Position numbers and translations under genes: made by a program
Source: an uncultured delta proteobacterium
GTDB lineage: Bacteria > Desulfobacterota > Binatia > UBA9968
DNA length: 64,000 nucleotides
Direction of reading: 5' to 3'
Assembly (NCBI GenBank): GCA_963728565.1
Contig: CAVSLC010000013.1
Span: 256,001-320,000, forward strand
Notes under the pieces: model-generated
What the model was told of the DNA's origin: nothing
Database searches by the model: none
What the model saw: only the letters and a program-made list of their open reading frames with translations
Shown here: one piece after another, positions 2,798-29,264 of the stretch
Position numbering within the stretch: the first letter of the stretch is position 1
Layout of the letters: the number at the start of each line of letters is the position of its first letter

Positions 2798-3916
2798 TTA
2801 GCAAAAGCCGGCAAAATGATCGAAAGAAACTTTTCTGTCCGCCACCGCTGACCCAACGGCCTGGAGATCGGCAATATACTCGATGGAGTCAAGTTGCTGC
2901 ACGTTCTTGGGCTCGACATCCGGAAGTCCGAGACCATCCAGCCCGTGCCGCGTCAACTCGGCATTGTACCGCAGATAGGTAAAAAGCCTTGGTTGGACAG
3001 GGCCTCTCGTGCCGATCATATTGCCGACTTCGCGATCCAGCGGATCTCCGGCCAGGCATTTACCAAATACTCTGCATAGAAAATCCTGCTCGTTCAGCGC
3101 CGCTGCCATTAATGCCGAGGGTATCGAGCTGGCGTTGTAAAGCACGTTCATTTCATCCGGCCGCAGGTCGGCGTTTGCGTCCGGGCTCGTTCCGGTCCCA
3201 ACCGATACAACGAGCAGATTATCTTCGCCCACCGGCCAGTTCAGATTAAACGCTTCCACCGTAGCCATCAGGAAGGCCTGGAACGCCGGGTTGTTGTACA
3301 TCGTGATACCGCCATCGACAAAGATGAATTCCTTCTGTCCGACCCGCACCACTTCGGGCGGAAAATAGGTTGGCGCGGCGGTACTGGCCCGAACCAACTG
3401 CCACAGCGGCAAATTCAGGTTGCAATCCGCGCGCGCGCAATCGTTGTATTTGGCGCGTGGATTATTCGATATCGGCCAAGGTGAATCGGTCGAAGCGTTG
3501 CGCATGACCATCATCAGCAACCCGTCGATCTTTTCACTCCCCAGGGTGGTATCGGCGCCAAACTCCTGGCGCAGCCGGGCAGAGAGTTTTTGATCTTCGA
3601 ATTTATGCCGGTAGTAGCGATTCAGTAATGACGCTTTATCGAACATCTCCCGGCCGTTTTGCAGGTAAAAGTCACGAATACGATCGATGCTCATTCGCCA
3701 GGAGAGACAGGCGGCAATGATCGCGCCGGTGCTGGTGCCGGCAAAAAAATCGAAATAATCCGCCAGCACAAAATCGTTGCCCCGCCCTAAATTGTGTCGC
3801 AGCATATGTTCTATCTTCGCCAGCACTTCCACGGTCAAAATGCCGCGAATGCCGCCGCCGTCCAGCGCTAATATTTTCTTTGGTCCTATGGCTTTGATTT
3901 TATCCGCCAAACTCAT
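2798..3916 (-). CDS. Patatin-like phospholipase
   Basis: DGGGIRG, GTSTG (catalytic Ser) and DGG (catalytic Asp) motifs. Confidence 0.93.
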   Translation of the reverse strand: MSLADKIKAIGPKKILALDGGGIRGILTVEVLAKIEHMLRHNLGRGNDFVLADYFDFFAGTSTGAIIAACLSWRMSIDRIRDFYLQNGREMFDKASLLNRYYRHKFEDQKLSARLRQEFGADTTLGSEKIDGLLMMVMRNASTDSPWPISNNPRAKYNDCARADCNLNLPLWQLVRASTAAPTYFPPEVVRVGQKEFIFVDGGITMYNNPAFQAFLMATVEAFNLNWPVGEDNLLVVSVGTGTSPDANADLRPDEMNVLYNASSIPSALMAAALNEQDFLCRVFGKCLAGDPLDREVGNMIGTRGPVQPRLFTYLRYNAELTRHGLDGLGLPDVEPKNVQQLDSIEYIADLQAVGSAVADRKVSFDHFAGFC

Positions 3917-3929
3917 TGCCGATCTCCCA

Positions 3930-5896
3930 TCACCACAAAGTCGTTGTGTCGATCACATAAACCCTGCCTGAATACTTCTGCACGGTCTCAAACATATGCT
4001 GGGTGCCGCCGGGGCCATCGCCGCCGCTGCGGTTCCAAAGACAAACAAAGCGCACCTTCTCTGGCCCCCATGCCAGCGAAGTGTAAAGCTGCCAAAGGTT
4101 TAGCCGCGCGAACGGGTTTGCTGCCGCGGGTAGCGGTCCTAGCACTTCGGGCATCACCAACGTTGTGGTATTTGGATGAGCTTTAACTTTGAAGTAGCGT
4201 TCCGTCCAGTTGCCCGGAGCGAAGGAGACCGACTTCCGCAAAAACGTCGGCTCGTCCAAGGCTAATCGTAATTCGAGTTTGACTCCGCGCTGAAGGGCAG
4301 CTTCGGCAAACAACAGGTCGCCGCCGCATGCGCCGCCGCAGAGAGCCAGGTCCGCCGCCCCCGCGTCCAACTTTTCCAGGGTAGCCGCTATCGCCGCCGC
4401 GGCGATTTTCTCTTTATCGGCAGGAAATCGCGGCTCGGGCCGGTCCGGAGCATCGATCATATGACCGCTGAATAGCAAAACCTGTCGTGGCGCCCAGGTC
4501 TTATCTGGCGGATTGAGCCGGCTTAACGCGCGATCGAGAACCGCCAGTGCAGCTTCAACTTCCTCCGGACGAAAACCCAAAAGTCCCAGCAGCTCGAGCT
4601 GCTGGCGTGATGAATTGAGTTTGAACCAATCCTTATCAGCTACCGCGACGGCGTTCTTGTATGCCGCATCGACCGCTGGCTTCGTCCCCACCAAAACTTC
4701 CAATTCGGCTAAGCTGATGCGCGCCCAGTAATCTTTGGGATTTCTCTCCAGCGCGCCACGGATCGCCCAGCGCACGCCGCCTTCCATTTCCGTGCGCAGC
4801 ACATCGGCTTTCAGCTCATCGGCCGACAGGTGAGCCAACAAATGCAGCAAGGTCACGGCATTGATTCCTGAGTAGTAGTGCGCCGGATCTTTGCGGAATC
4901 CGGTGGAGTATGCGTTGATCGCTTCGCATAGGGTTGCGCTTTCGCTCTCAGCTTCCCGGCGCATATCGACGACAGAGCTTCCGTCGCTGCTTCCAGCAAT
5001 CCACCCACGCGTCTTTTTCCACGCGCCCGCGCATCGCCCAACTCTCGGCATCTTGAGGGAATTCATCGATCAAATCTTCGATGCACTCTTTGGCATCGTC
5101 ATGCTTTTTTAGCCGGCCGAGTAATAGGCACTTCTGCCGGCGACTCTCTAAATCTCTAGGTCGGATCGCCAGCGCCTCTTCATACTGTGCCAGAGCCAAC
5201 TTGAATTGGCCCACTGAAAGCAGCGCCCGGCCGGCCTTCTGGAGTGCCTCAAGGTGAAAAACGCGAGTAGGCGCCTCGCCGGCTAGAACAAGAATATCGC
5301 CAGGACGATTGCCTCTCCTGGCTATGTCGATCCGGTCCGCCCATCCTTCATATTGTTCCCAAAACTCTTTGGCTTCTTCGACCCGGAGAGACTTCCAATC
5401 AGGCTCGTCCAAATAGCGTAGCAGATGATAGACTGGACTCACCTTGCGTCCATACCAGGCATTGATCGTATGAATAGCGACCTCGGCTAAATTTTTCTTG
5501 TCATCCTCGAGGTACTGCGGATCGGGAATCGCTGCGGCCGGGGTGTTTTTGGCGATTCGGTAACGAACCGAACGTTCAGTAAGAACATCGAAGGGCGTTT
5601 GATCGCGCCGGCAGGTAATCTGAATCACGCCCCGCTTCCTGAGCGCATGGCGCACGCCAAGTTCGTACCAGACGTTGGGATTGTCAATGGACAAGTCGGC
5701 GACCACCAGATCCGCGAGCAGCAGTTCCTGGAACATATCCGTGCGGATATTGCCGGCCCGCATCTCTTCGTCGGCGCGAAATACTTCAAAGCCCGCCGCC
5801 TTCCAAAGCCGGTTTGATCAACTCACGAAATACCGCATTGAAGTCAATATCTTCCTTGATGCCAAAGGGCATCGCGACAAACGCATGGTGCGCCAT
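3930..5896 (-). CDS. Multidomain protein: NDT/deoxyribohydrolase-like N-terminus, TPR/DUF4071 (MAP3K TRAFs-binding-like), SLOG-like C-terminus; frameshifts near 5800 and 4991
   Basis: Joined reading MAHHAFVAMPFG..FRADEE..ADLVVADLSIDNPNVWYELGVRHA, then TPR helices and YSGINA, then LLFSGHMID..GGACGGDLLFAE. About 655 aa. Confidence 0.78.
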
Positions 5897-6702: not shown

Positions 6703-7167
6703 CTATCGATTTTCCCCGGCCCGAGATTGTTGAATCGCCTCGACAATCGCGTCGGCTTCAAGACCCAGTTCCAGGGTCTCGATCAGGTCACTGTAACGAT
6801 CAGGATCTATGATCGCCTTCACTTCCGGCTCGAAGACGTGATACACGCCTAAACCCAATTCGACGCCACCGAGCGGCCCGGCATAGGTCGGATCGCCGCG
6901 GGTCATGGTTTCGAACTGCACGCGCGCCGCATCGACGTTGGGCGCGCCGAGTAGCACGACGAGATCATCCGCACCGTACTCTTCTGCAAGCTGTTTGACT
7001 CGACCTTGAACCTCAAGGTCCACCGCGCCGGCGGCAGTTCAAACAAAGCACTGAGTGGTCGCGTAGACTACCTCGGCACCCAGATTCTCGATAGCCTGTT
7101 CGATGGTATGGGCCGGCACGCCATCGCGTTCGCCGAGAATTGCGATTTTCTTGCCTCGAAGTTCCAT
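6703..7167 (-). CDS. grdA: Glycine/sarcosine/betaine reductase selenoprotein A (154 aa, Sec at codon 43)
   Basis: MELRGKKIAILGERDGVP..TQCFV-TGA(7039-7041)-TAAGAVDLEVQ..GDPTYAGPL. Homology continues across the TGA, in the CxxU motif. Confidence 0.93.
7002..7020 (-). promoter_or_regulatory. Putative SECIS of grdA
   Basis: Perfect 8-bp stem GACCTTGA/TCAAGGTC with GGT loop, starting 18 nt after the UGA. Confidence 0.7.
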
Positions 7168-7208
7168 CAGTTCCCTTTCAATCCGACTTAGCTTGGAAAT
7201 TGATCCTT

Positions 7209-7414
7209 GTTATCCCTGCCGTCCAACATAATCAACATGTCATTTCATTTGTTATCACTGTCGCTCACCTCGCCAACATGCCGATTTCATCTTTATGGCT
7301 GCCGTTCCAATAGCACCGACATGCCGTTTTGGCGGGCTGTCACTGTCGCTCTCATCTCGCCAACATGCCCCATTTCATTTTTTATGGCTGCCGTTCCAAT
7401 AGCACCGACATGCC
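7209..7414. repeat. Degenerate tandem array (~44-bp unit, about 5 copies) duplicating the grdC 3' end
   Basis: 34-bp exact repeat TTTATGGCTGCCGTTCCAATAGCACCGACATGCC at 7292-7325 and 7381-7414, with CAACATG/GACATG recurring about every 44 bp. Confidence 0.85.
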
Positions 7415-8827
7415 ATCGCTGAGCTGGGTCATCTGCCCCAAAAATAAACTGGCTCGGGCAAAAAGAAAACAGCGCTTGAATTGTCCCTGGGTTAGTTCTT
7501 GGACGGCATGCGGCACATAAGCCAGCGCCGAGGCGATATGGCCCTGGGTTGGCGCATAGCCGGGCAATCCCTTTTCTTTCATGAATGCCGCAAGATCGTT
7601 TTTTGCCAGCTTGCCCGCCTTGACCAGGACGGCCCCGAGCATCCGGTAATTTCGCTCCGCAACGTCGCCGCCGTTCGCCGGCAAGGTGATCTCCGGATTG
7701 TGCAATTCGGTGACAAATTTATCGATCGCCGGCACGCCCAGCTCTAGCCGGTTCAGCGGGTCGACAACCAGTGATTTCAGCTGCTGATCCAATGACGCGC
7801 CGGCCGATACCGGATGACGGCCGACGCCGGCCAGATTGATAATCGGGCTTTTGCCGTCATCCCGGCCAACCCAGACCGCAACTGCCGCCTGCATGTCTTC
7901 CAACACCGGAATGTTTTTTTCAAGATGGTAGAGAAACTTCATGCCGAGCTTGGGCAGAGACGATCCACCGACAACAATGATATTTTCCGCGACACCGCTT
8001 TGCACGAGCGCGGCGGCGGTGACCATCGCCGGAATCGGCGCGGCGCAAAAATCTTTAACATCGAAACCGGAAGCCATCTCACAACCGGAAAACTCGGCGA
8101 TCGCTTTGGCTAAATTGCCGCCGCCGCGCTGATAACGGTCGCCGACGGCCTCTTCCGAACAGCCCAATACAAAATCGACCTCTTGCTTCTTCAGGCCCGG
8201 GTTTCCGGCAAAGATTTCCTCAAGCGACAAAGCCGCCGAGACCTTGCCGCAGAGATTCTCCAACAACACCGTCGCAGATAGCGACTCATCTTCGTGATGC
8301 CCGTTGGCGATCCAGCCCACCGGTTCGAGCTCACTGCCAATAAACAGCTGCAGGCCGTCACCTTGAGCGATGATCGACTTCAGCTTGTTTGAGTCCATAA
8401 GATTCGGAGCAGTCGTTGCAAGCGATCTGCAAACGGTCGATTGCTGCAGAGGCGCGGCAATCTCATCCCAGAAACGGTCGAGCAAGGCAACATGTTTGAA
8501 CGGATCCGCCAGCGCGAGCAGAGCGAGAAAGAGTTTTTCGTCGACGATGCTGCCGAAGGTTTTTCGCTCCTCGGTGAGTATCGCATGCTCTCCGAACCAC
8601 GGTCGGCTGACTAACCATAGTTTCTCAGGCGCTTGTTGACCGATGAAAACCTCATTGGGCAAGTAGCCCTGCGCTTGCTGAAAGGACCTAAGACTTCGGT
8701 TCAAGTCCGCGAGACGCGCCGGATTGGCGGCAATTTCCCGTTGCGGTTTTGACCCATACCGTGTCAGACCCGGGGTATGGATCAGGACGCTGCAGGCTGC
8801 TTTTATCACAGGTGAAAAATTCGACAT
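7382..8827 (-). CDS. grdC: Glycine reductase complex component C, FabH-like subunit
   Basis: CSEEAVGDRYQRGGGNLAKAIAE, FCAAP, ELHNPEIT and GYAPTQGHI motifs. Confidence 0.92.
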   Translation of the reverse strand: MSNFSPVIKAACSVLIHTPGLTRYGSKPQREIAANPARLADLNRSLRSFQQAQGYLPNEVFIGQQAPEKLWLVSRPWFGEHAILTEERKTFGSIVDEKLFLALLALADPFKHVALLDRFWDEIAAPLQQSTVCRSLATTAPNLMDSNKLKSIIAQGDGLQLFIGSELEPVGWIANGHHEDESLSATVLLENLCGKVSAALSLEEIFAGNPGLKKQEVDFVLGCSEEAVGDRYQRGGGNLAKAIAEFSGCEMASGFDVKDFCAAPIPAMVTAAALVQSGVAENIIVVGGSSLPKLGMKFLYHLEKNIPVLEDMQAAVAVWVGRDDGKSPIINLAGVGRHPVSAGASLDQQLKSLVVDPLNRLELGVPAIDKFVTELHNPEITLPANGGDVAERNYRMLGAVLVKAGKLAKNDLAAFMKEKGLPGYAPTQGHIASALAYVPHAVQELTQGQFKRCFLFARASLFLGQMTQLSDGMSVLLERQP

Positions 8828-8954
8828 AGCTGCTCTTCAGGATGTATAAAGTATGAGGCTGCCGATCAAGAGGCGAGCCCGCAGAAGAACGTTAAGAGAC
8901 GAAGATCGCTCTCACGATTGTTCCGGGCTAACAGCCTGGTGAAAAATGGGTCTT

Positions 8955-9081
8955 GCAAGCTGCTCAAAAAGACCTCAGAGGTAAGGCGCGCGAAGTCCGA
9001 TGAGCTGAGGCGTACGTTTCAGTACGTCGAAGCGAGTCGCGCGAGCGCAACGACACCTATGAGTCATTTTCAGCAGCTTGC
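8955..9081. repeat. ~127-bp palindromic MITE/REP-like element, copy 1
   Basis: Terminal arms GCAAGCTGCTCAAAAAGAC / GTCATTTTCAGCAGCTTGC. Abuts the grdE TAG stop. Confidence 0.85.
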
Positions 9082-10385
9082 TAGTAGGCATTGCAGATCC
9101 AGCATTCCTTACCCCAATTATCGACACCGCCAATCACCATATCGCGCGCGTCAAAGGTGAGTTTTCCTTCGGCCTGCGCCACCGGCGCGCCAGGGTAGCT
9201 GAGAATCTGCACCCGGTCGTACGGGCCGACCAGACGTTGGGCTTCGGGCAGCTCCAACCAGCGGTCGCGGCTCCCAGTGCTTACCACGGCGTCGGCTTCT
9301 GGAACATAGAACAGCAGCGGCGAATCAACTCCGTCCTTGCCGCCGTACTCATAGGTTACCAGCACCGTGGCGATCCCGCGCAGTTCACACGCGCGCACCG
9401 TCAGCATCACGTCCACGAAGGCGTTACCGGAACCTAGCCAGGCCACGATCGCCCCCTGCGCACCAAGAGTCGCCGCCAGTTGCGCGGCGTTTTGGGCGAT
9501 CACTTCCTTGCCATGAAAAGTCTCGTAACGAATGCGTTGCAAAATCATACCGCTGAAATTCAAGCGCCGGCCGTGATCGCGGTAAAGCGCCAGCACCAGA
9601 GGATGATTCTGCCAATCCCAGGTAATCGGAAAATAACCGATGCCGCGGGTGGCATTGACTGCCATGGCACAGTCGAGCAACTCGTTGGGATGAACCACGG
9701 TCGAGAGCGATTCTCGTATCGGCAGACCGTAATAGCTCACACCTGAATGAACATGATGATCGTCGGTCAAACAGCCTTGAACCAAGACCACGTTCGGCAA
9801 ATCCGCATGCCTTTGGCTGAGATCGAAAACCTCTACGTTCTCGGCCTCAATGCCGATGGTCGTCTCGGCAACACGGCGGGCAACTTGGAACTCAGCGGTT
9901 TGAATTGCCGTGTGCGCATCGAGTTCCGAAAGCCCATCGCGCAGCTTCATGATCAACACCAGATGCGAAAGGCCGCCAAATTTTGACGCCGCCGCGCCCG
10001 CTCCCCATGTATCGAGGAGGGCGCTTCGCTGCACGCCCAGTCCGGCTCTAACGGTTCCCTCGTACGCCGCCGTCGCGATCACAGCCATGCCGGATAAGCG
10101 ATGGGTGCGACCGGCGCCGACCGCTTCCACCGGTCCGAGTATCCCGGGAAACACCTGACCGTTGCCGCTAACTTTCACCCGGGGCTCAACGATGTCGCGA
10201 ATACCGGTGATGCGCACCTTGTCGCCAGGACAAACCACAGCCAAGGATGCTTCGGCGATTCGCCCGTCACGCAGGATTATTTCCTCCAGCGCAGGTTGAT
10301 CGATCGCGAGCGTTCCGGCGCGGTATTCAAATGTCCGGCCCAGACGGATCTCTTTGACCGGGTAATCAGCCAGTTCGAGTCGCAT
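9081..10385 (-). CDS. grdE: Glycine/sarcosine/betaine reductase component B proprotein-like, paralog 1
   Basis: RITGIRDIVEPRVK, FPG, GRTHRLSG, HPNELLD..NHP, GSGN and EYGGKDG motifs. Confidence 0.85.
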   Translation of the reverse strand: MRLELADYPVKEIRLGRTFEYRAGTLAIDQPALEEIILRDGRIAEASLAVVCPGDKVRITGIRDIVEPRVKVSGNGQVFPGILGPVEAVGAGRTHRLSGMAVIATAAYEGTVRAGLGVQRSALLDTWGAGAAASKFGGLSHLVLIMKLRDGLSELDAHTAIQTAEFQVARRVAETTIGIEAENVEVFDLSQRHADLPNVVLVQGCLTDDHHVHSGVSYYGLPIRESLSTVVHPNELLDCAMAVNATRGIGYFPITWDWQNHPLVLALYRDHGRRLNFSGMILQRIRYETFHGKEVIAQNAAQLAATLGAQGAIVAWLGSGNAFVDVMLTVRACELRGIATVLVTYEYGGKDGVDSPLLFYVPEADAVVSTGSRDRWLELPEAQRLVGPYDRVQILSYPGAPVAQAEGKLTFDARDMVIGGVDNWGKECWICNAY

Positions 10386-10391
10386 GCTTGC

Positions 10392-11732
10392 TTACCCGCT
10401 CACCGCCATATTCGGGGTAAATAGCGTCGGTCCCGTGACTTCGGATTCCAGCGCTTTCAACGCGGTCTGAACGATCTCGCGCCGCAGCCGCGCATCGAGA
10501 TCTTGCGGCAGGCTCGGATCGCCGCAAGGATGAGGTATGCTGACGCCTTTAACGATCCGGTTGGCCCGTACCTGCTCCGCCACCGGATACATCGCGCTTA
10601 CCAAGGCTACCGGAAGTCCCGCCTTCTCGAGTTCTTTGCTCATCACAGCGCCGCTGCGACTACAAGTCCCTCACGTGGCGACAAAGAGCACGCCCTCGAC
10701 ATTGTCCTTCTTCAGATCGGCGGCAATTTCCTGGCCGACGCGGCGCATCACCGCGGGGGAGCCCTGATTGCCTGGAATAACGTAATACGCCGGATACAGT
10801 TTGCCGGCGCCGATCACCCCTTCCGATTCTAACGACCGAAGCGCATCCAGCGGCACGCCATAGTGCGGATTCTTGTTCATGTAGGCGACATTATAGCCGC
10901 CGTGAACAGCTTCCCATTTTCCCGGTTCAAGCTCTTTGAGCTCGGCAATGTTGTATTTACGCCAGTGGGTGTTGCGGTAGGTTTTGAACCGATCCGGATT
11001 GCCCCAGGGAACGACGCCGCTGGTGGTGATGACGGCAATGTTGCGGGCTTTTAAATTATCGAGAGGCGGAGCCGGCGCGATATCGTCCCAGGCCTCCATC
11101 GGCACTTCAGTAGTGAAGGGCTCATGATTGATCTTTTTCAGCAACATATCGATGGCGCGATCGGCGCCGCTCCGATCAGTTTTTTCCAAACGCCGGATAC
11201 CGCGGCTCAAGTAACCTTCCTGCAACGCCGGCCCGATGGTCTCGCCTCGAGCCAGGCGAGAGACAAATTTCGCCACCGCCTTGAGCGCATCGGTCATGCC
11301 GGCGGCGGTCTCTGTTGTCGGTAAACAGAAAACCCGAGGATCGGCCAGGTCGCGATAAGTGCCGATGGCTGGATTTTCTTCGTGCATTGCGGTGACGCAG
11401 GGAATTTCCAATGTCGTGGCAACGGCGTGACAAATCTCGATGCAGCTCATGCCGTAACGTCCGGAATTAAACGCCGGACCGGCGACTAGCGCTTGCGCTC
11501 CCTGAGAGCGAACCGCTTCGAGGATTGCCTTGAGGGCTTCCTCACTATGATCGTGAAAGTAGTTGTCCCCATAATAGATCGTGCATGCGACCTTGGTGTC
11601 AGCGCCGAGCTGTGACTGCAGCCCGCGCGCCGCGCCGGCGGCCTCTTCGATCATGCCGACAGACATGCCCGCCTTCTCTTCGCCTCCAAACCCGGCAAAG
11701 AACTGATTAACGACATGGACGATTGTGGTCAT
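10392..11732 (-). CDS. grdB: Reductase selenoprotein B (446 aa, Sec at TGA 10671-10673)
   Basis: VNQFFAGFGGEEKA, GPAFNSGRYG and HGGY motifs. VAT-TGA-GTCSRSGAVMSKELEKAGLP..IPHPCGDP joins two track ORFs in frame. Confidence 0.93.
10644..10658 (-). promoter_or_regulatory. Putative SECIS of grdB
   Basis: CGCAGC-GGC-GCTGTG hairpin with a G-containing loop 18 nt after the UGA. Confidence 0.55.
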
Positions 11733-11857
11733 CAGGAAATCCTCCTTTGCAACGACCCGTTAAATAGAAGCACCCTATCATCTTTCGCGTATTCATCGAT
11801 AGCCGCGGCCGCGGCCGAAAGGCTGGCTCCTTCGCTCCAGTTACGGGATTATCTCTT

Positions 11858-11984
11858 GCAAGATGCTCAAAAAGACCTCAAAGGCAAGGCGCGCGAAGTT
11901 CGATGAGCTGAGGCGTACGCTTCAGTACGTTGAAGCGAGTCGTGCGAGCGCAACGACGCGTATGAGTCTTTTTCAGCATCTTGC
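11858..11984. repeat. ~127-bp palindromic element, copy 2
   Basis: Highly similar to 8955-9081; arms GCAAGATGCTCAAAAAGAC / GTCTTTTTCAGCATCTTGC. Abuts a TAG stop. Confidence 0.85.
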
Positions 11985-13291
11985 TAGTAATCCCTGCATA
12001 CCCATCCCTGCTCGCCCCAAATATCGGCTCCACCGATGATCACATCCCTTCCCTCCAGCGACAGAGCACCGCGGGCTGGACTCGCAGGCACGCCCGGATA
12101 GGATAATACTTTGATCTCGTCGTACGGACCGAGTACTTTGTCCATCGCCGGGAGCTCGACGCCGCGATCCAAGCTGCCGGTCGTGACCACGCCATCGGCT
12201 TCCGGCAAATAGAAAAGCAGCGGGCTATCGCGGCCTTCCTTGCCGCCATGTTCATAGGTCACCAACACCGTTTTGATTCCATTACGCTCGCACGCCTGCA
12301 CCGTCAGCATGACATCGACGAAAGCATTGCCGCCGCCGATCCAGGTCAGCAGCGCTCCGTCGGCGCGAAACATTTTCGCCAGCCGCGCAGCATTCTGCGC
12401 GCCGACTTCTTTCCCGTGCGCAGTCTCGAAACGGATGCGCTGCAAAATCACGCCGGCAAAGTTGAGATCTCTTCCATGGGCTTCGTACAGGCGCAGCACC
12501 AGCGGATGATTCTGCCAGTCCCACGTAGTTGGATAGTATCCGCGGCCTGAACGAGTGGTGTCCACGGTGATCGCGCCGTCAAAGAGCTCATTGGGATGGA
12601 GGAAGGTCGCCATCGATTGGCGCAGCGACAGGCCATAGTAGCCAACTCCCGAGTGAACATGCTGCGGATCGGTAATACAGCCTTGGACCAGCATCACTCT
12701 GGGCAAGCCGGGAGTTTCCGCGCTCAGATCGAAGCGGCGAACCGATTCAGGCGAGAGTCCAACCGTTACTTGCGCCAGCCGTCGGGCGACTTTGTATTCG
12801 GCCAATTGAATCGCGGTATGCGCATCCAATTCTCCCAGGCCAGAGGCGAGGCGAAAGCTCACCACCAGATGCGCGTGCGCGCTGAAGCGCGAGATCTCTG
12901 CTGCGGCTCCCGTCATATCTAAAATGGCGCTGCGCTGCACGGTGGTGCCGGCGCGGATGGTGCCTTCGTACGCTGCCGCCGCAATCACCGTCATTCCTGA
13001 AAGCCGGTGCGTCGTCCCCTCTCCCACATCGGCCACCGGCCCGAGAACGCCAGGAAAGACCTGGCCGTTTCCCGAAACCTTATAGCGCGGCTCGACGATA
13101 TCGCGAATGCCGGTGATGCGGGTTTTCTCCCCGGGCATGGCCGCGGTGAGCGAAACGTTAGTAATGCGCGGATCCTGGAGCACCAGATCCACCAGTTCGG
13201 CTTCGTCCATATCCAATGTGCCGTTCCGGTAGGCGAAACGCCCTCCCAGGCGTAAATGCTTGACCGGAAATTCGGCGACATCGAGTTTCAT
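11984..13291 (-). CDS. grdE: GrdE-like component B protein, paralog 2
   Basis: Same motifs as 9081-10385; clear paralog. Confidence 0.85.
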   Translation of the reverse strand: MKLDVAEFPVKHLRLGGRFAYRNGTLDMDEAELVDLVLQDPRITNVSLTAAMPGEKTRITGIRDIVEPRYKVSGNGQVFPGVLGPVADVGEGTTHRLSGMTVIAAAAYEGTIRAGTTVQRSAILDMTGAAAEISRFSAHAHLVVSFRLASGLGELDAHTAIQLAEYKVARRLAQVTVGLSPESVRRFDLSAETPGLPRVMLVQGCITDPQHVHSGVGYYGLSLRQSMATFLHPNELFDGAITVDTTRSGRGYYPTTWDWQNHPLVLRLYEAHGRDLNFAGVILQRIRFETAHGKEVGAQNAARLAKMFRADGALLTWIGGGNAFVDVMLTVQACERNGIKTVLVTYEHGGKEGRDSPLLFYLPEADGVVTTGSLDRGVELPAMDKVLGPYDEIKVLSYPGVPASPARGALSLEGRDVIIGGADIWGEQGWVCRDY

Positions 13292-13322
13292 AATCTAGCG
13301 TGAATAGTTCACCAACGAAAGA

Positions 13323-13501
13323 CGATCAAGGGGCGAACCCTCCGGAACGAAGGCGATGGGCCTTTGCCTTGAGGCGGCCTGCGAACTGAAGTTCGGGAGC
13401 AAGCGCCTGGGAAATAATTTGACTTCACCGCCAAACACCATAAAATTATTTGAAGCTGTTCAGCTCCGCGCCTTCGCTCCTCCGAATTCTCCCCTTGATC
13501 G
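13323..13501. repeat. ~180-bp long inverted-repeat element
   Basis: CGATCAAGGGG..CCCCTTGATCG ends, with nested CGAAGGCG/CGCCTTCG and AAATAATTT/AAATTATTT pairs. Confidence 0.65.
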
Positions 13502-13529
13502 ACACCCTTGTCGTGAGCGTACCAGCCCC

Positions 13530-14603
13530 CTATCGCGCACCGACTAGCTTGGCAAATTCTTCGACGTAGGCTTTGAGATTAGGCCCGAGCTTGGGAGTTA
13601 CCACGTAGTCAGGCTGGAGTTGAAATTCCTGGAATTTGCTGCGCACTCCCTTCATCGCAACCCCTTTCCCGAGTTTGCCTGCCAACACTGTTTGCCCCTC
13701 TTCCGATAGTACCCAATCGGCGAAAAGCAATGCCGCATGCGGGTGCGGCGAGTTCCTGGCGAGAAACAGGCCCTCGGGCTTTACGATCTTCGGCGCCAAT
13801 ACTTTGAATCCCAACGGCGCTCCCTTGTCGCGGATGGCCGCGGAGGTTTCGCCATTGATAGCGATGCCGATGGGATACTCGCCTGAACTCACCACCTGAG
13901 TGGTCAAAGCGCCGCCGCGCCTGAAGCTGAGATCCTGCTTGCGCAGCTTCGTCAGATAGTCCACCGATTTCTCCCGTCCCCATGCCTGCTCCATCGCTGC
14001 CAGAATGTAGCCGGCTTCAGGGTCGAACAGCAGTTTGCCTTTCCACGACGGATCGAGAAGCGCGTCATAAGTTTGCGGCACCGACTCGGCCTTGACCAAA
14101 GTTGTGTTGTAAACCAACGCGGTGGTCAAATAATACATGCTATGCCACGAGCCGCTCGGATCGTAGGTGCCATCATAGAATCGCTCCCGAGCGGCCATGG
14201 CGTAAGAATGGACTAAATTGTCATTGATAAGCTGGTAGCCGTAGCTCGAATCGACCTGGATCGCGTCCACGGCATGGCTGCCGGCGCGCGCCTCGGTGAG
14301 CGAGCGGTTAAGGATTCCCTCGCGTGGCGCGTAGTAGTGTTTTAGATTCAAGAATGGATAGCGCGCATTGAAAGCCTTGCCGAGTTCGCTAAATTCATTG
14401 ACCAAAATAGTTCCGTAATAAACCAGCTCGCCTTCCTTTTGAGCTCCCTTGACGAGAAAATTTTGTTTGTCCTGAGGATTTAGCATGCTGACTTTCGCCG
14501 TCACCTCTGACATAGTCGCTGCGCCGCTAGTGTCTGCCATAAGAATGAACAGTAATGATTGGCATAGCGTTAAAACTCCGAGGCCCTTTATCATTTTACG
14601 CAC
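13530..14603 (-). CDS. ABC extracellular solute-binding protein (Fe3+/thiamine-like family)
   Basis: Signal peptide; EGELVYY, LLDPSWKGK and PHPHAALLFADWVLSEEGQ motifs. Confidence 0.85.
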   Translation of the reverse strand: MRKMIKGLGVLTLCQSLLFILMADTSGAATMSEVTAKVSMLNPQDKQNFLVKGAQKEGELVYYGTILVNEFSELGKAFNARYPFLNLKHYYAPREGILNRSLTEARAGSHAVDAIQVDSSYGYQLINDNLVHSYAMAARERFYDGTYDPSGSWHSMYYLTTALVYNTTLVKAESVPQTYDALLDPSWKGKLLFDPEAGYILAAMEQAWGREKSVDYLTKLRKQDLSFRRGGALTTQVVSSGEYPIGIAINGETSAAIRDKGAPLGFKVLAPKIVKPEGLFLARNSPHPHAALLFADWVLSEEGQTVLAGKLGKGVAMKGVRSKFQEFQLQPDYVVTPKLGPNLKAYVEEFAKLVGAR

Positions 14604-14745
14604 CGTCGTACCTGCCTTTCACTCGCCTAATATCATCGAACCAGTATCATTCAAATTGATTCTTAGATGCTTCAACCAAATCCGCAGGAATGGATACTGT
14701 TTGCTCCCCGCTTGATGCTTGCGTCGGTTGAACTGCAGTAAGCGA

Positions 14746-16050
14746 TCAGTAAGCATCGCATCGCCAGCTTTGACTTCCCCAATTATCGACGCCGCCGATC
14801 AACATGTCGCGCGCATCCAGGGTTATTTCTCCCATCGCTGGCACAACCGGCGCTCCGGGGTAAGTCAAAATCGAAAATTCCTTATACGGTCCGACCACAC
14901 GCTCGGGCGCGGGAAGTTCGAGCCAACGATCTCTACTGCCACTGCTGACTACCGCATCGGCCTGCGGCAGGTAATAAAGCAACGGTGAATCGACACCGTC
15001 CTTGCCACCGAACTCGTAGGTGATCAGCACGGTTTTGATGCCGCGCTGTTCGCAAGCACCAATGGTCAGCATCAATTCAACGAATGCATTGCCGGAACCA
15101 ATCCACGCAACCAGCGCGCCGGCGGCCCCGAGAGTCGCTGCCAGCTGAGACGCGCTATGCGCCGCCACCTCTTTCCCCAGGAAAGTGTCGAACTGAATGC
15201 GTTCGAGGATCACGCCGAGAAAATTAATCTGCTTGCCGTGCTGGCGGCACAATCCGAGCGCCAGCGGATGATTTTGCCAGTCCCAAGTAATCGGGAAATG
15301 GCCGACCGCTCGAGTGGCGGTCACGGTAATCGCGCCGTCGAGCAGTTCGTTGGGGTGCACAAACGTCGCCAGTGAATCGCGAATCGGCAAGCCGTAGTAG
15401 CTCACGCCGGAGTGAACGTTATGGCTATCCGTGAGACAACCTTGAATCAACACGACCGCGGGCAAGTCCGGCCGCGTAGCGCTTAAATCGAAGGCTTCGG
15501 TGCTTTCGGGGTTGTGGCTGACGGTGAGTTCGGCAAGTCGCCGCGCTACCTTCAGCTCCGCGCCTTGAATCGCCTGATGCGCGTCGAGATCGGACAGCGC
15601 TTCTTTAAGGCGCATCACCAGCACCAGCCCGAGCAGCGAACTAAACCGCGAAGCATCCGCGCCCGGTCCCCACATATCCAGGAGCGCGCTTCGCTGCACC
15701 GCCAGACCGGCGCGGACCGTCCCCTCGTAGGCAGCGCTGGCTATCACCGCCATTCCGGAGAGACGATGGGTTGTGCCCTCACCGACATGGTCTACCGGAC
15801 TTAACGTACCCGGAAACACCTGAGTTTGGCAGCCCACTTTCACCCGTGGCTCGACGATATCGCGGATCCCTGTCACCCGGACTTTCTCGCCCGGATGAAC
15901 CACCGCCAGGGATGCATCTTCGATGCGTCGGTCCTCCAACATTAGATCCGTCAAGGCTCGCTGATCCACTTCCACAATCCCGCGGTCATAATGAAACCTT
16001 TTTCCTAGGTGAATCTGCTTTACCGGAAATTCGGCGAGATCTAGCCGCAT
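14746..16050 (-). CDS. grdE: GrdE-like component B protein, paralog 3
   Basis: Start MRLDLAEFP at 16050; paralog of the two above. Confidence 0.85.
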   Translation of the reverse strand: MRLDLAEFPVKQIHLGKRFHYDRGIVEVDQRALTDLMLEDRRIEDASLAVVHPGEKVRVTGIRDIVEPRVKVGCQTQVFPGTLSPVDHVGEGTTHRLSGMAVIASAAYEGTVRAGLAVQRSALLDMWGPGADASRFSSLLGLVLVMRLKEALSDLDAHQAIQGAELKVARRLAELTVSHNPESTEAFDLSATRPDLPAVVLIQGCLTDSHNVHSGVSYYGLPIRDSLATFVHPNELLDGAITVTATRAVGHFPITWDWQNHPLALGLCRQHGKQINFLGVILERIQFDTFLGKEVAAHSASQLAATLGAAGALVAWIGSGNAFVELMLTIGACEQRGIKTVLITYEFGGKDGVDSPLLYYLPQADAVVSSGSRDRWLELPAPERVVGPYKEFSILTYPGAPVVPAMGEITLDARDMLIGGVDNWGSQSWRCDAY

Positions 16051-16054
16051 CGGT

Positions 16055-17047
16055 TTACCGCGAACGTTCAAAGGCACCTTCTTTCTCTAGCTTGCGGACG
16101 AGCCGATCGTCGACCAAGTCTTCGGCTTTGAGCTGGCGAATTTTCTCGTTGCTGGTTCCGAGCAGGCGGATGGCATTGCGGATGCCGTCGGCGTTTGGAT
16201 AAATGCGCCGCTCATAAAGCGTCCGCATGAGCTCATAGCCTTCTTCCGCATCCTCGAATCGCGCCAAACGCAGTCCTTTATGGAGACTGGTCATGACGCT
16301 GGTCTTGTTTTCCGGCTTCTCGATGTATGCCGTAGCCTGGGTCATGGCTCGAAGCACCTTTTCAACCGTTTCCGGTGACGATTTGAGAAAGCTCCGCCGC
16401 ACGAAGACGCCGGTGCTTTGATAGGGAATCTTCAAGCTGGCAAGATCGGCGAGCACATTGAATCCCTGACGCTTCATGAGCGCTCCGAAGGTATAGCCCA
16501 AGTAAGTACCCTCGATCAGGTTGGTGGCCAGCGCCTGGGCTAGAACCGCTTCATCGCCGACGATTCTGAAGTTGACTCCATCACGTTTGGGCTCGATGCC
16601 CCAGTGATCCAACACCAGCATGGTAATCATCCAGATGCCGCCGCCGATGCTTTGGACGCCGATGTTCCGGCCTTTCAACTGTGCGGGAGTTTTGATCTGC
16701 GGATGAACGACGAACGTACCGGTAAGCCGATTGACCAATCCGGCAACGAATACACCGTCCAAGCCGCCGGCCACCGCGCCAAGCGTAACGCCCGTGCCGG
16801 AACCGAAATAAAATTGCGACTCACCTGCGGCTAACGCCGAAAGCGCAACGTTCCCCGCGCGGACATACACAAGGCGCGCGTCCAGATCCTGTTTGCGGAA
16901 AAACCCCTGGTCCTGAGCAACGAGAAGAGCGCCCGCGGTCCGTTCATTGAAACTGGCGTATGAAATCACCGTCTGCGTAGCCGCTTGGACGTATGAAGCT
17001 ATAAGTAGCAGCGCAAGGGTGAAACTTATTCGAAGACGCATGATCAA
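16055..17047 (-). CDS. ABC substrate-binding protein, SsuA/THI5/NMT1-like
   Basis: Signal peptide; AQDQGFFRKQDL and LKGRNIGV motifs. Confidence 0.82.
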   Translation of the reverse strand: MIMRLRISFTLALLLIASYVQAATQTVISYASFNERTAGALLVAQDQGFFRKQDLDARLVYVRAGNVALSALAAGESQFYFGSGTGVTLGAVAGGLDGVFVAGLVNRLTGTFVVHPQIKTPAQLKGRNIGVQSIGGGIWMITMLVLDHWGIEPKRDGVNFRIVGDEAVLAQALATNLIEGTYLGYTFGALMKRQGFNVLADLASLKIPYQSTGVFVRRSFLKSSPETVEKVLRAMTQATAYIEKPENKTSVMTSLHKGLRLARFEDAEEGYELMRTLYERRIYPNADGIRNAIRLLGTSNEKIRQLKAEDLVDDRLVRKLEKEGAFERSR

Positions 17048-17072
17048 CCTCCAGGTTTCTTATACTACTAGT

Positions 17073-17252
17073 GTTCAAAGGTTCAAACGTTCAACAGTTC
17101 AACGTCGGACACAGTAGCAGGTTCGAACCGTTCCAACGTTAAAACCCAGATTGGGCCGGTGGCTTTCTTCGCTTGAACATCTGGGACAATTGGCGCGTTT
17201 GTAACCTTCAGCAAATCTGTCATTGAACGTTTGAAACTATGAACTGTTGAAC
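17073..17252. repeat. GTTCAA short tandem repeats with inverted TTGAAC repeats at the far end
   Basis: gttcaaag-gttcaaac-gttcaaca-gttcaac ... ttgaac-gtttgaaac-tatgaac-tgttgaac. Confidence 0.75.
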
Positions 17253-17271
17253 GGGACCGCACTGTATGACC

Positions 17272-17396
17272 TCGGGCGAGCAAGAAGGCTCATATGCGAG
17301 TCGCGCGATGGTCGATGAGCGCAGGCGTACATAGTCAGTACGTCGAAGCGAATCGGGCGAGCGCAACGAAGTAGATGAGCCTTATCGCTCGTCCGA
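17272..17396. repeat. ~125-bp palindromic element, copy 3 (same core, different arms)
   Basis: Core cgatgagc..aggcgtac..cagtacgtcgaagcga..gcgagcgcaacga; arms TCGGGCGAGC..GGCTCAT / ATGAGCC..GCTCGTCCGA. Abuts the ubiD stop. Confidence 0.8.
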
Positions 17397-18842
17397 TCAC
17401 GCCCAGTAGGTGGTGCGGTCAACGGGAATATGCTGCAGAATCTCTACCGGCACATATTCTTCAAGGCGGATTCTGGCGAGAGCCTCTTCCGGACATTGGG
17501 ACACCGGCGAGAACGGCCTGTCGAGCGGGCGGGTGGCGTCGATGATCATTGCCGAGGTTAACCGGGGGCTGTCCAGCGATGGATCGATGAGACTGGCGCG
17601 CATGATTTCGCCAATGATCGAGACTTGGCGGTGGGGCTGAACCCGTGTCGCCAGCGCCCAGAGAATTTCCGTTGGATTGTAAACATCGATATCCTCGTCG
17701 AAGACGAAGACGTTCTTACACCAATCCCATGTCAAAACCGCGGCGGCCGCACGACCGGGATCTCCTTCGGACATTTTTTTCATTGAGATAAACACATTCA
17801 ACAGCGCATGACGGCCGCTGGTACACACAGCTTGAACGTTGGGCACCGCTTCGCGGCATCGGCGCAGATACGCGCCTTCGCGCGCCAGGTCCATCCACGG
17901 CTTGTCGCCCTCGGGCGTGAGAATCGACATGTGCATCGCGTCCCGCCGGCGCGTAATCGCCCGCACTTCGTAACAAGCCGATTGCTGAAACCCCTGCATG
18001 CCCAGATAGCCGTTCACCTCGCCGAACGGACCTTCGACCATGCGCTTTCCCGGCAGCAACGCGCCTTCAATGACTACTTCGGCATCAGCAGGAACGAGTA
18101 GACGCTCACCCCATGTTTCCGACGCCGTCAAGCGTAGCGGCTCCTGCAAATAGCCGCCGATAATTTCATACTCGCTGATCTCGAACGGACCGCCATAGCA
18201 GGCGCCCATTTGATAGCCGGGATGATGGCCGATCACCGTGGCTACCGGGCATTCTTCGGCGGCTTCTTCGTAGCCGCGGAAAATGCGCCACATATGCTGC
18301 AAGGTCATCAGGAAGCCGGTATGGTTTCGATCCTTGACTTCCATCCTATGATACGAAGCGTTATAGACGCCGCTGTTGCGATCCCGAGCAACGCTCGACA
18401 TATCGATATAAGGCCCGCCATCCATCTCGTGATGGCGCATCAACGGCAACTGGTAAAGATCTACCTCGTCGCCGTTCTGAATGACTTCTTTAACCGGCGC
18501 CGCATCCCGATCGACGAGAATGGGCGCGATTCTTCCTGCTTCGCGGCGCAGGATCTCGCGCGCCATCTCCGCGCGATCCATCTCCTTGGGCACACCCAAG
18601 GCCACCTGCACTTTCTTCTGAGTGTTTTCCGTGCCGATCACGAGTTTGATGCCGCTTGACTGTCCATGCGCGTTGAGTGGCTGTTGGAACAGCAAAACGG
18701 GAAATCTCTTGAGCGCGCCGAGCTGTTTGACGATCGCAGTCACATCGTAAGCAAGCGGATCGACGGCCTTTGAAATCGTCACGATTTCATTGGGATAAAT
18801 CCGGCGCATATCGTCGAGGAAAGTGCGTAAGGATTTTGCCAT
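17397..18842 (-). CDS. UbiD-family (prFMN-dependent) decarboxylase
   Basis: DGGPYI, YHRM, EGPFGE, DEDIDVY..WALATR and IIDAT motifs. Confidence 0.9.
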   Translation of the reverse strand: MAKSLRTFLDDMRRIYPNEIVTISKAVDPLAYDVTAIVKQLGALKRFPVLLFQQPLNAHGQSSGIKLVIGTENTQKKVQVALGVPKEMDRAEMAREILRREAGRIAPILVDRDAAPVKEVIQNGDEVDLYQLPLMRHHEMDGGPYIDMSSVARDRNSGVYNASYHRMEVKDRNHTGFLMTLQHMWRIFRGYEEAAEECPVATVIGHHPGYQMGACYGGPFEISEYEIIGGYLQEPLRLTASETWGERLLVPADAEVVIEGALLPGKRMVEGPFGEVNGYLGMQGFQQSACYEVRAITRRRDAMHMSILTPEGDKPWMDLAREGAYLRRCREAVPNVQAVCTSGRHALLNVFISMKKMSEGDPGRAAAAVLTWDWCKNVFVFDEDIDVYNPTEILWALATRVQPHRQVSIIGEIMRASLIDPSLDSPRLTSAMIIDATRPLDRPFSPVSQCPEEALARIRLEEYVPVEILQHIPVDRTTYWA

Positions 18843-20997: not shown

Positions 20998-21747
20998 TCA
21001 ATGAAAAATACTTCCACCATCCACTACAATTGTCTGCCCGGTCATGAAATCACTGTCGGCCGAGCACAGAAATACCAACGTGCCCATCAGATCATCTGGC
21101 GTTTGTAGCCGTTTGAGCGAGCGCTCTTTGAGCTGCAGCTCGGTCAACGCTTTGGGCGCGTTCTGTCCTTCATGCTCGACCAGACCCGGTGCGATGGCGT
21201 TGACGCATATGCCGAACTCGCCCACTTCGCGCGCCAGCGATCGGGTCATGCCGATCAGCGCAGCTTTGGATGCGACGTAGTGCAAAAAGTTGGGCGTACC
21301 CCAGTACGCCGTTGAGGATGAGATGTTGATGATCTTGCCGCTTTTCTGCTCTTTCATCTGTGGAAAGACGGCTTTTGCGCACAGGAACGGGCCCTTTATG
21401 TTAACCGCCGAAACCCGGTCCCATTCTTCGGCGGTGATCTCATAGAACGGGTGACGCTGGATGTTGATGAAGATCGCCGCATTATTAACCAGAATATCGA
21501 TTCGTCCGAAAGCCTTCACCGTCTCCACGGCCATTCGGTGGGTGTCCGCGTCGTCGGAAACATCGATCTTGAGCGCTAGCGCTTTGCCACCCGCCGCACA
21601 AATCTCGTTTGCTACCGGCTCGCCGTCGAGGATGTCCGCTATGACAACCGCTGCGCCTTCGTCGGCCAACTTTCGAGCGTAAGCCGCCCCGATATGGCGC
21701 GCCCCGCCGGTCACAATCGCCACACGACCGCTTAGCCGCACAACCAC
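20998..21747 (-). CDS. SDR oxidoreductase
   Basis: TGGARHIG, NNAA and YVASK motifs. Confidence 0.92.
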   Translation of the reverse strand: MVVRLSGRVAIVTGGARHIGAAYARKLADEGAAVVIADILDGEPVANEICAAGGKALALKIDVSDDADTHRMAVETVKAFGRIDILVNNAAIFINIQRHPFYEITAEEWDRVSAVNIKGPFLCAKAVFPQMKEQKSGKIINISSSTAYWGTPNFLHYVASKAALIGMTRSLAREVGEFGICVNAIAPGLVEHEGQNAPKALTELQLKERSLKRLQTPDDLMGTLVFLCSADSDFMTGQTIVVDGGSIFH

Positions 21748-21829
21748 TCTCGAAATGCTTCGCTTTGACGCAGCATGACACTCCCCTGAACCTTTTTATC
21801 GCAATTCGTCGCGACCGTTTCCGAAGCGA

Positions 21830-23452: not shown

Positions 23453-23495
23453 AGCTTTCGTTTCGGGTAAGACACAAACATCTCGTGTGAATGGA

Positions 23496-23632
23496 TTCAA
23501 CACGTTCAAGCGTTTAACCGTTCAAGGAAATCAGGCCGTATCAACGTCGAGGATTTGGAATAACCGAGTTTATGAACAGTTATCATCCAGTCTGTTAATG
23601 CTTGAACTACTTGAACGGTTGAACTGTTGAAC
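23496..23632. repeat. Second GTTCAA/TTGAAC inverted tandem-repeat element
   Basis: ttcaacac-gttcaagc-gtttaacc-gttcaag ... ttgaac-tacttgaac-ggttgaac-tgttgaac. Confidence 0.72.
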
Positions 23633-25212: not shown

Positions 25213-25438
25213 AGCGCCTCCAGCTAACCCCAATCCGACATCGTTCGAATCCCGCGAGGCCGCCGAGCCCTACAGCCGTGGGCAATGGGATAGTGCCTTT
25301 AAGGCCACCCCACATTCCCCTAAGCGTGATGTTTCGTACGTGCGGGCCATAGAGCCAATGCGCGCTCGGGTGCCCCCGGCTTCCGGTCTCGCCGTCCTCG
25401 CTTACTGTTGACGGTGCTCAACTATTGTCGGATCAGGG

Positions 25439-26458: not shown

Positions 26459-26560
26459 AGGCGAACCCTCCTCCGTTACTGCAATGCTCCCTCAATATCT
26501 AAATGATCGGCAGATGTCTATTTGTTTCTACCAGGGCCATTTGGTAACTTTATCCAAACG

Positions 26561-29253: not shown

Positions 29254-29264
29254 GGTCTCGTGCC

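Follow-up and report, generated by a model that had tools for sequence, protein, structure and literature searches.

Glycine-type reductases (Grd) have usually been described from strict anaerobes, in which they act on three amino-acid-like substrates and yield acetyl phosphate. According to excerpts of PMC10838667, the fluoroacetate reductase subunit FarE and the betaine reductase subunit GrdI lack the processing cysteines of GrdE, and no Schiff base is possible with fluoroacetate. Cloacibacillus porcorum, the source of the fluoroacetate reductase, has been described with grdABCDEX (excerpts of PMC12366334). No GrdD-less Grd system and no glycine reductase or selenoprotein of Binatia is described in the literature found, with most subscription papers and supplements outside the search; the supplement holding the GrdBE tree of PMC9751293 could include Binatia. 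Here, we analyzed a stretch of 64,000 nucleotides (the window, to which coordinates refer unless a contig or locus is named) from an uncultured delta proteobacterium of the Binatia (GenBank assembly GCA_963728565.1, contig CAVSLC010000013.1, positions 256,001 to 320,000), in which a cluster of nine genes at 6703–18842 encodes a Grd-like reductase. The cluster represents a conserved, selected and real system and, judged from its proteins and by the tests run, lies outside the glycine, sarcosine, betaine, proline and fluoroacetate reductase groups. Our overall reading is that of an intact selenocysteine (Sec)-type Grd reductase from a GrdD-lacking branch of Binatia: GrdB would be shared, GrdE is likely uncleaved and GrdC would pass its acetyl group to coenzyme A (CoA). 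We consider the chances of this reading, taken as a whole, to be about even.

Gene content and selenocysteine decoding

On the basis of Pfam and NCBIfam models, all nine open reading frames (ORFs) were named and found on the minus strand in the order ubiD-SBP1-grdE3-SBP2-grdE2-grdB-grdE1-grdC-grdA, where SBP stands for a solute-binding protein gene. This order, as well as a 3:1 ratio of GrdE to GrdB, had been claimed in an earlier note made from the sequence; both could be confirmed, and the ratio also holds for the whole assembly, which is 80.55% complete.

Two genes contain an in-frame TGA. In grdA (selenoprotein A; 6703–7167; PF04723, 197 bits; NF040748, 198.6 against a cut-off of 130), the TGA at 7039–7041 corresponds to Sec43 in a canonical CxxU motif (CFVU), and read-through gives the full 154 amino acids. 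In grdB (selenoprotein B; 10392–11732; TIGR01918, 439 against a cut-off of 65), the TGA at 10671–10673 corresponds to Sec354 in the motif ATUGTCSRSG, and read-through gives the full 446 amino acids. One in-frame TGA was present in 50 of the 50 GrdA matches listed for relatives. The earlier note had also proposed a genome search for selABCD, and all four genes were found: selA, selB and selD above their cut-offs on contig C28, and the tRNA-Sec gene (selC) on contig C25 of the same assembly. Hairpins form 3' of both UGA codons, with stability z scores of -1.17 and -1.24, which did not exceed those of shuffled sequences; the Sec assignment therefore rests on conservation and on the machinery. It should be noted that selD (G000:C28:38569-39495), which sits in a selA-selB-selD run, has an in-frame TGA itself, and that a short PrdB-like ORF on contig C3 (L047, G000:C3:59913-60260) has one in a PYUPFCH motif and is likely to encode a further selenoprotein.

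Phylogeny and motifs of GrdE and GrdB

The references fetched for comparison were the sarcosine reductase proteins GrdG/GrdF of P. acidaminophilum, the betaine reductase proteins GrdI/GrdH of E. gilvus together with its GrdC/GrdD, and the A. noterae and Photobacterium loci, whose unannotated records were classed by motif and similarity. Quick trees were used for GrdE and FastTree for GrdB. The larger GrdE tree held 93 of 94 extracted proteins, which came solely from loci that had been fetched rather than from the complete set of matches, and the GrdB tree held the 67 of 76 extracted sequences that were long enough and distinct. All three GrdE proteins of the cluster fell inside a 62-row Binatia clade with a Shimodaira–Hasegawa-like approximate likelihood ratio support (SH-aLRT) of 100, apart from the six references and with PrdA-type proteins as the outgroup. 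A 21-row tree repeated this placement, and a clade with GrdI was rejected by the approximately unbiased test (p-AU 4e-57) for a group named after the larger tree had been seen. The GrdB tree likewise separated a 37-row Binatia clade, which holds the cluster GrdB, from a 6-row reference clade. Both proteins, for which the earlier note had suggested trees against characterized reductases, thus branch apart from the reference clades of the glycine, sarcosine and betaine reductases. In addition, the cluster proteins reached no substrate-specific cut-off (TIGR01917, NF040794 and NF040793 included), and GrdB stayed under those for GrdB, GrdF and GrdH (401 against 602, 425 against 800). The GrdB/GrdF signature motifs of PMC9751293 matched only four reference proteins among the 67 and no Binatia GrdB tested. 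The Sec motif of GrdB, UGTCSRS, has the form UxxCxxS, and the last Cys of UxxCxxC was present in only 5 of 60 Binatia GrdB.

The three GrdE genes are grdE1 (9081–10385, 434 amino acids, adjoining grdB; PF09338, 301 bits), grdE2 (11984–13291, 435 amino acids; 308 bits) and grdE3 (14746–16077, with a likely start at the ATG at 16050 that gives 434 amino acids; 305 bits). Their products are 61–68% identical to one another and 31–35% identical to GrdG and GrdI, and they form separate orthologue groups across genera. The ratios of non-synonymous to synonymous substitution (dN/dS, Nei-Gojobori, against two congeners) were 0.10–0.15 for GrdE1, 0.09–0.15 for GrdE2 and 0.13–0.17 for GrdE3, indicating purifying selection on each. 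A structure model of GrdE2, with a predicted local distance difference test score (pLDDT) of 79.8, gave no fold match at an E value of 0.001 or better.

In all three proteins Thr246 aligns with Cys242 of GrdG, the cofactor-forming cleavage cysteine of the SGNC motif. Because threonine occupies this column, we regard it as probable that the GrdE subunits are uncleaved, in which case their substrates would have to bring their own leaving group. Threonine is, on the other hand, chemically capable of an N-to-O acyl shift. If Thr246 cleaved itself in this way, a 2-ketobutyryl cofactor would result and GrdE could still bind amines as Schiff bases, and the presence of threonine in all three paralogues and in most orthologues is in line with such a route. 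However, Ala, Val or Ile occurs at the column in close paralogues, one of which is sister to the E2 group (Leu, Arg and Tyr are also found within the clade), and the GrdE motif has lost its second Cys as well as the Asn ahead of this column; cleavage at Thr246 therefore seems very unlikely. The loop around residue 246 differs among GrdE1, GrdE2 and GrdE3 but is constant inside each orthologue group, and this variable stretch (about residues 243–256) behaves as a specificity loop would. With regard to the altered motifs claimed in the earlier note, the changes of Cys to Thr in GrdE and of UxxCxxC to UxxCxxS in GrdB were found, as was the loss of a GrdC tail described below, whereas the GrdA motif is unaltered.

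SBP-grdE cassettes

This genome is rich in SBP and UbiD genes, with 118 and 40 loci that resemble the two SBPs and 23 UbiD loci; of random 12-kb segments, 8% contain two such SBPs and 1% contain a UbiD in addition to two. Adjacency alone therefore proves little; it was conservation that separated the SBPs, which are linked, from UbiD, whose linkage is not obligate. We examined 61 genomes of the same order (designated by G numbers; our own, G000, included), scoring 33 and 35 candidates per genome in the SBP orthologue searches. SBP2 (13530–14603, SBP_bac-type; PF13416/PF13343) has orthologues of at least 65% identity at 12 loci, 11 of them directly upstream of grdE2 and the twelfth a broken copy at a contig end. 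Eight weaker matches (46–59%) comprise two directly behind a grdE, three without a nearby grd gene and three at loci not fetched. For SBP1 (16055–17047, NMT1/SsuA-type; PF09084), all eight orthologues of at least 76% identity lie directly upstream of grdE3; five matches at 59–64% are on other contigs, at loci not fetched. A third type of SBP, which shares 53–59% identity with SBP1, is located before grdB at four loci and before a grdE at a further one, and SBP-grdE pairs without grdB in the fetched stretch were observed in G002 and G021. SBP1-grdE3 and SBP2-grdE2 are hence inherited as two-gene cassettes, also away from grdB, a finding that is new here; the SBP linkage seen in the earlier note is conserved among relatives with particular GrdE paralogues. 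Both SBPs have signal-peptide-like N-termini by eye. Their co-inheritance with GrdE supports the view that the GrdE subunits may act as swappable specificity modules, and that each extra GrdE travels with its own likely importer is the strongest support for the substrates being, as is likely, distinct.

A single strong GrdB is present in this assembly, and the single-contig genomes G049 and G060 each have two clade GrdE and one clade GrdB among the loci fetched. Given these counts, it appears rather likely that one GrdB is shared by the three GrdE proteins. Alternatively, GrdE2 and GrdE3 might not use this GrdB at all, pairing instead with another selenoprotein (a missing grdB, or the PrdB-like ORF on C3 with its PYUPFCH motif) or acting alone in cytoplasmic binding or regulation. 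The completeness of the assembly leaves room for a second grdB that is missing from it, and the SBP-grdE pairs apart from grdB in G002 and G021 would also fit this alternative. Nevertheless, four congeners and another genus show the 3:1 arrangement in a single gene run as well, the other strong GrdB of congener G005 belongs to a different clade with its own GrdE, and GrdE2 and GrdE3 are full length and under purifying selection, all of which makes the alternative improbable.

GrdC without GrdD

The absence of grdD noted earlier for the cluster proved to extend to the assembly and to the order: the GrdD model NF040747 found no protein above cut-off in any of the 61 genomes, with a best score of 28.8 bits, and the weak match in this genome is PlsX. 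The same model gave 549–581 bits in three of four reference records used as positive controls and detected GrdD in 1 of 151 genomes of a phylum sample, and nine GrdC-positive relatives without GrdD are single contigs that are 97–99% complete. We hold with high confidence that the reductase is independent of GrdD.

The partner expected for GrdD is present in a short form. GrdC (protein C beta, with a thiolase/FabH fold) is encoded at 7382–8827 and has 481 amino acids (NF040746, 510 against a cut-off of 450), with Cys261, Glu374, His376 and His430 as residues of note. All Binatia GrdC shown stop at the thiolase fold, the cluster GrdC at its last strand, and three GrdD-partnered references are about 30 residues longer. 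By eye, this extra tail resembles the N-terminal helix of GrdD and is likely to be a docking element for it.

Among metagenomes we used the best 80 of 560 loci by likeness to the cluster GrdC, six of which remained unclassed (four without a parsable GrdC, one without the end motif and one with a fusion that the contig edge truncates). Of the 74 classed, 71 have a short GrdC and no grdD in the locus (44 of them with at least 1.5 kb downstream), and three have a tailed GrdC, with grdD next in 3 of 3. The gene after GrdC (n=76) was grdA in 48 cases, trxA in 16 and grdD in 3. Five of 150 other genomes sampled evenly across the phylum have GrdC: one has both GrdD and the tail, and four have neither. 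Compact E-B-C-trxA-A operons on contigs of about 70% GC show that GrdC without GrdD also exists outside Binatia; in one of the GrdC clusters concerned, a member is labelled Actinomycetota. GrdC-GrdD fusions of 842–861 amino acids, with a linker in place of the tail, were also observed (P0130, P0134, P0141 and P0144), one fusion cluster having a member labelled Candidatus Atribacteria.

The structure model of GrdC (pLDDT 94.8) superposes on SpoVAD, OleA and FabH (Z 21–24, root-mean-square deviation 3–5 A, about 250–290 residues aligned), and Cys261 aligns with the active-site Cys motif of FabH. Among the catalytic positions, hhalign placed only the Cys, and the fold searches gave aligned ranges; by spacing, Glu374 rather than a His would stand at the first C-terminal position. 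A Cys-His-His triad special to GrdD-less GrdC was accordingly dropped, as this spacing puts Glu374, and not His376, at the catalytic site and as some GrdD-less GrdC have Gln at 376. Searches of solved structures by sequence gave nothing for GrdC beyond weak FabH matches, and the ORF at L001:2200-3135 did not align with the cluster GrdC.

Distribution among relatives

Over the cut-offs, GrdE could be identified in 49 of the 61 genomes, GrdB in 49, GrdA in 48 and GrdC in 45. GrdA and GrdC are mostly single copy, and G022 reaches 23 GrdE and 20 GrdB matches. Many of these matches (L012, L050-L064) lie beside SBPs, in a genome with one GrdC. Four close relatives by GrdC, at 81–95% identity, were found. 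Synteny in related metagenome-assembled genomes, a check that the earlier note had named, was observed in that the full order from ubiD to grdA recurs in the congeners G004 and G005, is split over contigs in G001 and G006, and is also present in G034, a member of a different genus with a third SBP before grdB. G014 has the order SBP1-grdE3-grdB-grdE1-grdC-grdA and no ubiD. In G005, an extra segment of about 1.5 kb lies between grdE2 and grdB (L002:8401-10163); the one ORF scanned in it gave no Pfam match.

Further gene arrangements were found in the family. A second grdC-grdA type stands behind a macrodomain gene in many genomes (L008, L009, L108-L114, L116), and G034 has both types. An ADP-forming acyl-CoA ligase follows the macrodomain-type grdC-grdA in G002 and G007, and in the present genome the macrodomain gene stands next to the ligase gene without an intervening grdC-grdA. 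A protein of 500 amino acids with a thioredoxin-like DUF255 domain, possibly a dedicated reductant, is encoded beside grdC or an other-clade grdE (L017, L020, L021, L071, L083, L147). Hydantoinase/oxoprolinase genes adjoin grd genes in several loci (L010, L014, L050, L060, L067, L099) and are a possible source of substrate.

Proposed mechanism and implications

In the mechanism that we propose, SBP1 and SBP2 would each capture the substrate of the GrdE encoded behind them. Since no permease gene lies within the cluster, the permeases would be encoded elsewhere. The three GrdE proteins would then pair in turn with the one GrdB on different X-CH2-COO- substrates, the loop at 243–256 setting the specificity, and the GrdB selenolate would displace X from the CH2 beside the carboxylate, as expected from the mechanism of the family. 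A Schiff base is not expected in the absence of the Cys that forms the pyruvoyl group, and X should therefore be a good leaving group on its own; an onium, an N-heteroaromatic group or a halide may serve, as with betaine and fluoroacetate. By analogy, the substrates could be substituted acetates of this kind, an assignment that we consider as probable as its opposite. The carboxymethyl group would move to the Sec of GrdA, as in the known system, and GrdA would be re-reduced by a thioredoxin encoded elsewhere. The earlier note had found no trx, which is correct for the cluster, but thioredoxin and thioredoxin reductase homologues are present on other contigs.

For the release step, GrdC would take the group as an acetyl thioester on Cys261 and hand it to CoA. 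FabH begins with a half-reaction in which acetyl moves reversibly between CoA and the active-site Cys, and the proposed step would be the reverse of it. Cys359 of GrdD is reportedly the thiol that makes acetyl phosphate, a result said to come from Kohlstock and colleagues in 2001. From these two points, it follows most simply that a GrdD-free GrdC would pass acetyl to CoA, and no phosphate-activating GrdD would then be needed. Acetyl-CoA as the product is the least secure step of the proposal, and the odds on it may well be equal. In keeping with acetyl-CoA, neither AckA nor Pta could be found in this assembly, and ADP-forming acyl-CoA ligase homologues are present in it.

Several observations weigh against this reading. 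The short form is over-represented in the metagenome set, which was picked by likeness to the cluster GrdC. Cys261, Glu374 and His430, which we place at the catalytic positions of FabH, are also present in GrdD-partnered GrdC, and among these residues only Cys261 was placed by a tool alignment. His376 versus Gln only loosely tracks the loss of GrdD: the short metagenome GrdC have 68 His and 2 Gln, two of the four GrdD-less genomes of the phylum sample have Gln376, and another GrdC set has 6 Gln against 16 His. An acyl-CoA ligase follows grdC-grdA in only two congeners, G002 and G007, and is absent from this position in every other complete locus with the same grdC type. AckA is found in 34 of the 61 relatives, many of which could then make use of acetyl phosphate, and PlsX, a distant homologue of GrdD, could in principle substitute for it. 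More generally, the related genomes are not independent samples, and the SBPs yield no ligand clue: among solved structures SBP2 has only distant iron-type binding proteins (E about 1e-12) and SBP1 has none. AcdAB as a fixed partner was rejected, as it stands beside grdC-grdA in those two congeners only.

The same modular front end could, on some of these grounds, lead to another exit, in which hydrolysis of the thioester by the short GrdC yields acetate, or PlsX takes the place of GrdD and acetyl phosphate is formed. PlsX matches the GrdD model weakly, AckA is frequent among the relatives, and the putative catalytic residues are the same as in GrdD-partnered GrdC. However, plsX is unlinked, matches to the GrdD model stay below 29 bits in 61 of 61 genomes, the tail associated with GrdD is lost, and AckA was not found in several single-contig GrdC-positive genomes, among them G037, G038, G040, G050, G053 and G060. 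Such an exit is, in our opinion, rather unlikely.

The likely role of the system would be to scavenge carbon and nitrogen from substituted acetates, rather than Stickland-type synthesis of ATP; the host has genes for oxygen respiration. Cytochrome c oxidase subunit I is represented by a match of 660 bits, just below cut-off, and a title on peroxidase activity of GrdB appears in the reference list of PMC3091704, as excerpted. These two points would be compatible with a system that is mainly a peroxidase or detoxifier, or that runs in reverse and builds X-CH2-COO- compounds from acetyl-CoA. Yet the co-inheritance with import proteins and the many divergent GrdE and GrdB paralogues per genome argue for the uptake and breakdown of varied substrates, and we give very little credence to either variant.

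In a broader perspective, the data might reflect an undescribed branch of selenium reductases that is widespread among soil bacteria with genes for oxygen respiration and acts as a plug-in platform, in which one GrdA and one stand-alone GrdC form a hub leading to acetyl-CoA without GrdD and mobile SBP-GrdE cassettes reprogramme a shared GrdB for new substituted acetates, with more than 20 modules in a single genome. This is a tentative view, for which we consider the chances to be somewhat below even. If it is true, the same selenium chemistry would be wide in soil bacteria, with another product and many more substrates, possibly halogenated or N-heterocyclic. A naturally GrdD-free GrdC opens the question of how GrdC acts alone, and the paired binding proteins offer a direct route to the substrates.

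UbiD and the flanking regions

The first gene of the cluster (17397–18842) encodes a UbiD-family decarboxylase (TIGR00148, 247 against a cut-off of 245). Its inclusion in the system, as the earlier note had it, did not hold: UbiD belongs to an island that is also found in genomes lacking grd genes, and the grd cassette sits inside this island. The UbiD subfamily is present in 57 of the 61 genomes. Among 11 orthologues of at least 75% identity, six adjoin a grd cassette and five do not. The conserved context of UbiD comprises two flavin adenine dinucleotide (FAD) oxidoreductases, an SDR protein, UbiD, an M24 peptidase and an enolase-family enzyme, and parts of it flank the grd cassette on both sides (20998–25233 and 305–2580). 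The space between the island halves is taken up by the grd cassette together with a TPR-S/patatin pair; in G007 the site is the same except that the grd genes are missing. UbiD might still make or remove the substrate of the reductase in one pathway, as the order from ubiD to grdA is kept in full in congeners and one other genus (G034). However, in G007, G021 and G023 the close orthologues lie away from grd genes, they are also present in G013 and G032, for which the search gave no grd gene, and G014 has a grd cluster without ubiD. A joint pathway is thus extremely improbable, and UbiD as an obligate member was rejected in view of the orthologues in genomes without grd genes. The outcome that the earlier note had named as refuting thus occurred for UbiD, but neither for the SBPs nor in the trees. 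Solved structures gave only distant relatives from which to read a UbiD substrate (best E 2e-58). The island is present in part or whole in G013, G023, G032, G037, G060 and others.

Two genes in the surroundings appear to be split. The TPR-S-domain gene (3930–5763) consists of two ORFs here and of one ORF of 653–654 amino acids in congeners; it precedes a patatin gene (2798–3916) with weak matches to anti-phage phospholipase models, and the two possibly form a defence pair. The second, CrtO-like FAD oxidoreductase of the island (23607–25233) is represented by two overlapping ORFs, likely owing to a frameshift or an assembly error, as relatives have one ORF of about 524–540 amino acids. On the plus strand, 26522–29819 encodes a MoxR-type AAA ATPase, a vWA protein and a cysteine dioxygenase-like protein.

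A palindromic repeat of 129 bp lies between genes of the cluster at 8952–9080 and 11855–11983, with a third copy at 17289–17383. It has 72 matches genome-wide, 67 of at least 90 bp, forms a long hairpin when folded and has the appearance of a miniature mobile or repetitive extragenic palindromic (REP)-like element. A role as regulator of the cluster was rejected because, with 72 copies across the genome, nothing about it is specific to the grd system. Promoter and terminator scans were at chance level (8 against 6.9 expected and 15 against 14.3 expected, respectively). Contigs from four soil RNA runs are 88–99% alike over 17–29 of 30 bins of the cluster, and 14–25 of 30 bins are covered by the same runs in the neighbouring stretch. 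As evidence of expression they were rejected, because the runs had been selected by the presence of the cluster and transcription cannot be read from contigs; one contig spans SBP2-grdE2 and two span grdB-grdE1, which shows adjacency in other strains only.

Comparison with known systems

D-proline reductase PrdAB is different, as the cluster proteins score 22–23 against 700 on TIGR04480 and 79 against 300 on TIGR04483. The glycine and sarcosine reductases (GrdB/GrdE and GrdF/GrdG; Peptoclostridium acidaminophilum and Acetoanaerobium) share the families A, B, E and C and the Sec machinery with the cluster, which, unlike them, lacks the SGNC cleavage motif, the GrdB/GrdF signatures, GrdD and GrdX. 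GrdC itself resembles the FabH and OleA acyltransferases in its thiolase fold (Z 21–24) and its active-site Cys, but shares only 9–18% identity with them, has about 150 extra residues and, by spacing, carries Glu374 at the first C-terminal catalytic position.

FarEB of Cloacibacillus porcorum, as excerpts of PMC10838667 describe it, is a substrate-specific E/B pair with its own transporter and with shared GrdA and protein C, and, like the cluster, it has neither the processing cysteines of GrdE nor the complete CxxC of GrdB. In contrast, the cluster scores 104–120 against 675 on the FarE model NF053623 and contains no radical-SAM gene, and FarEB has one E per B; it should be noted that FarEB is set apart here by model score and description, with the Far sequences outside the trees. 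FinHI, a glycine-reductase-family pair in a flavin-induced catabolic neighbourhood of Clostridium scindens, is tied in the excerpted text of bioRxiv 10.64898/2026.02.13.705874 to the loss of a side chain from an N-heterocycle (riboflavin to lumichrome) and is thus a precedent for substrates other than amino acids; the likeness is by description only, and no flavin genes are found in our cluster.

Among the closest known systems is also betaine reductase (GrdH and GrdI with GrdA, GrdC, GrdD and TrxAB; references E. gilvus, L029, and A. noterae, L027). Common to both are the CxxU of GrdA, Sec at the same position of the GrdB motif, a GrdE-type partner without the cleavage Cys and a GrdC above the family cut-off. 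On the other hand, the cluster GrdE is 35% identical to GrdI, the GrdH model NF040795 gives 397 against 775, and a GrdI clade was rejected. The cluster further differs in having no grdD, no GrdC tail and no BCCT transporter, and in possessing UxxCxxS, three GrdE per GrdB and SBPs.

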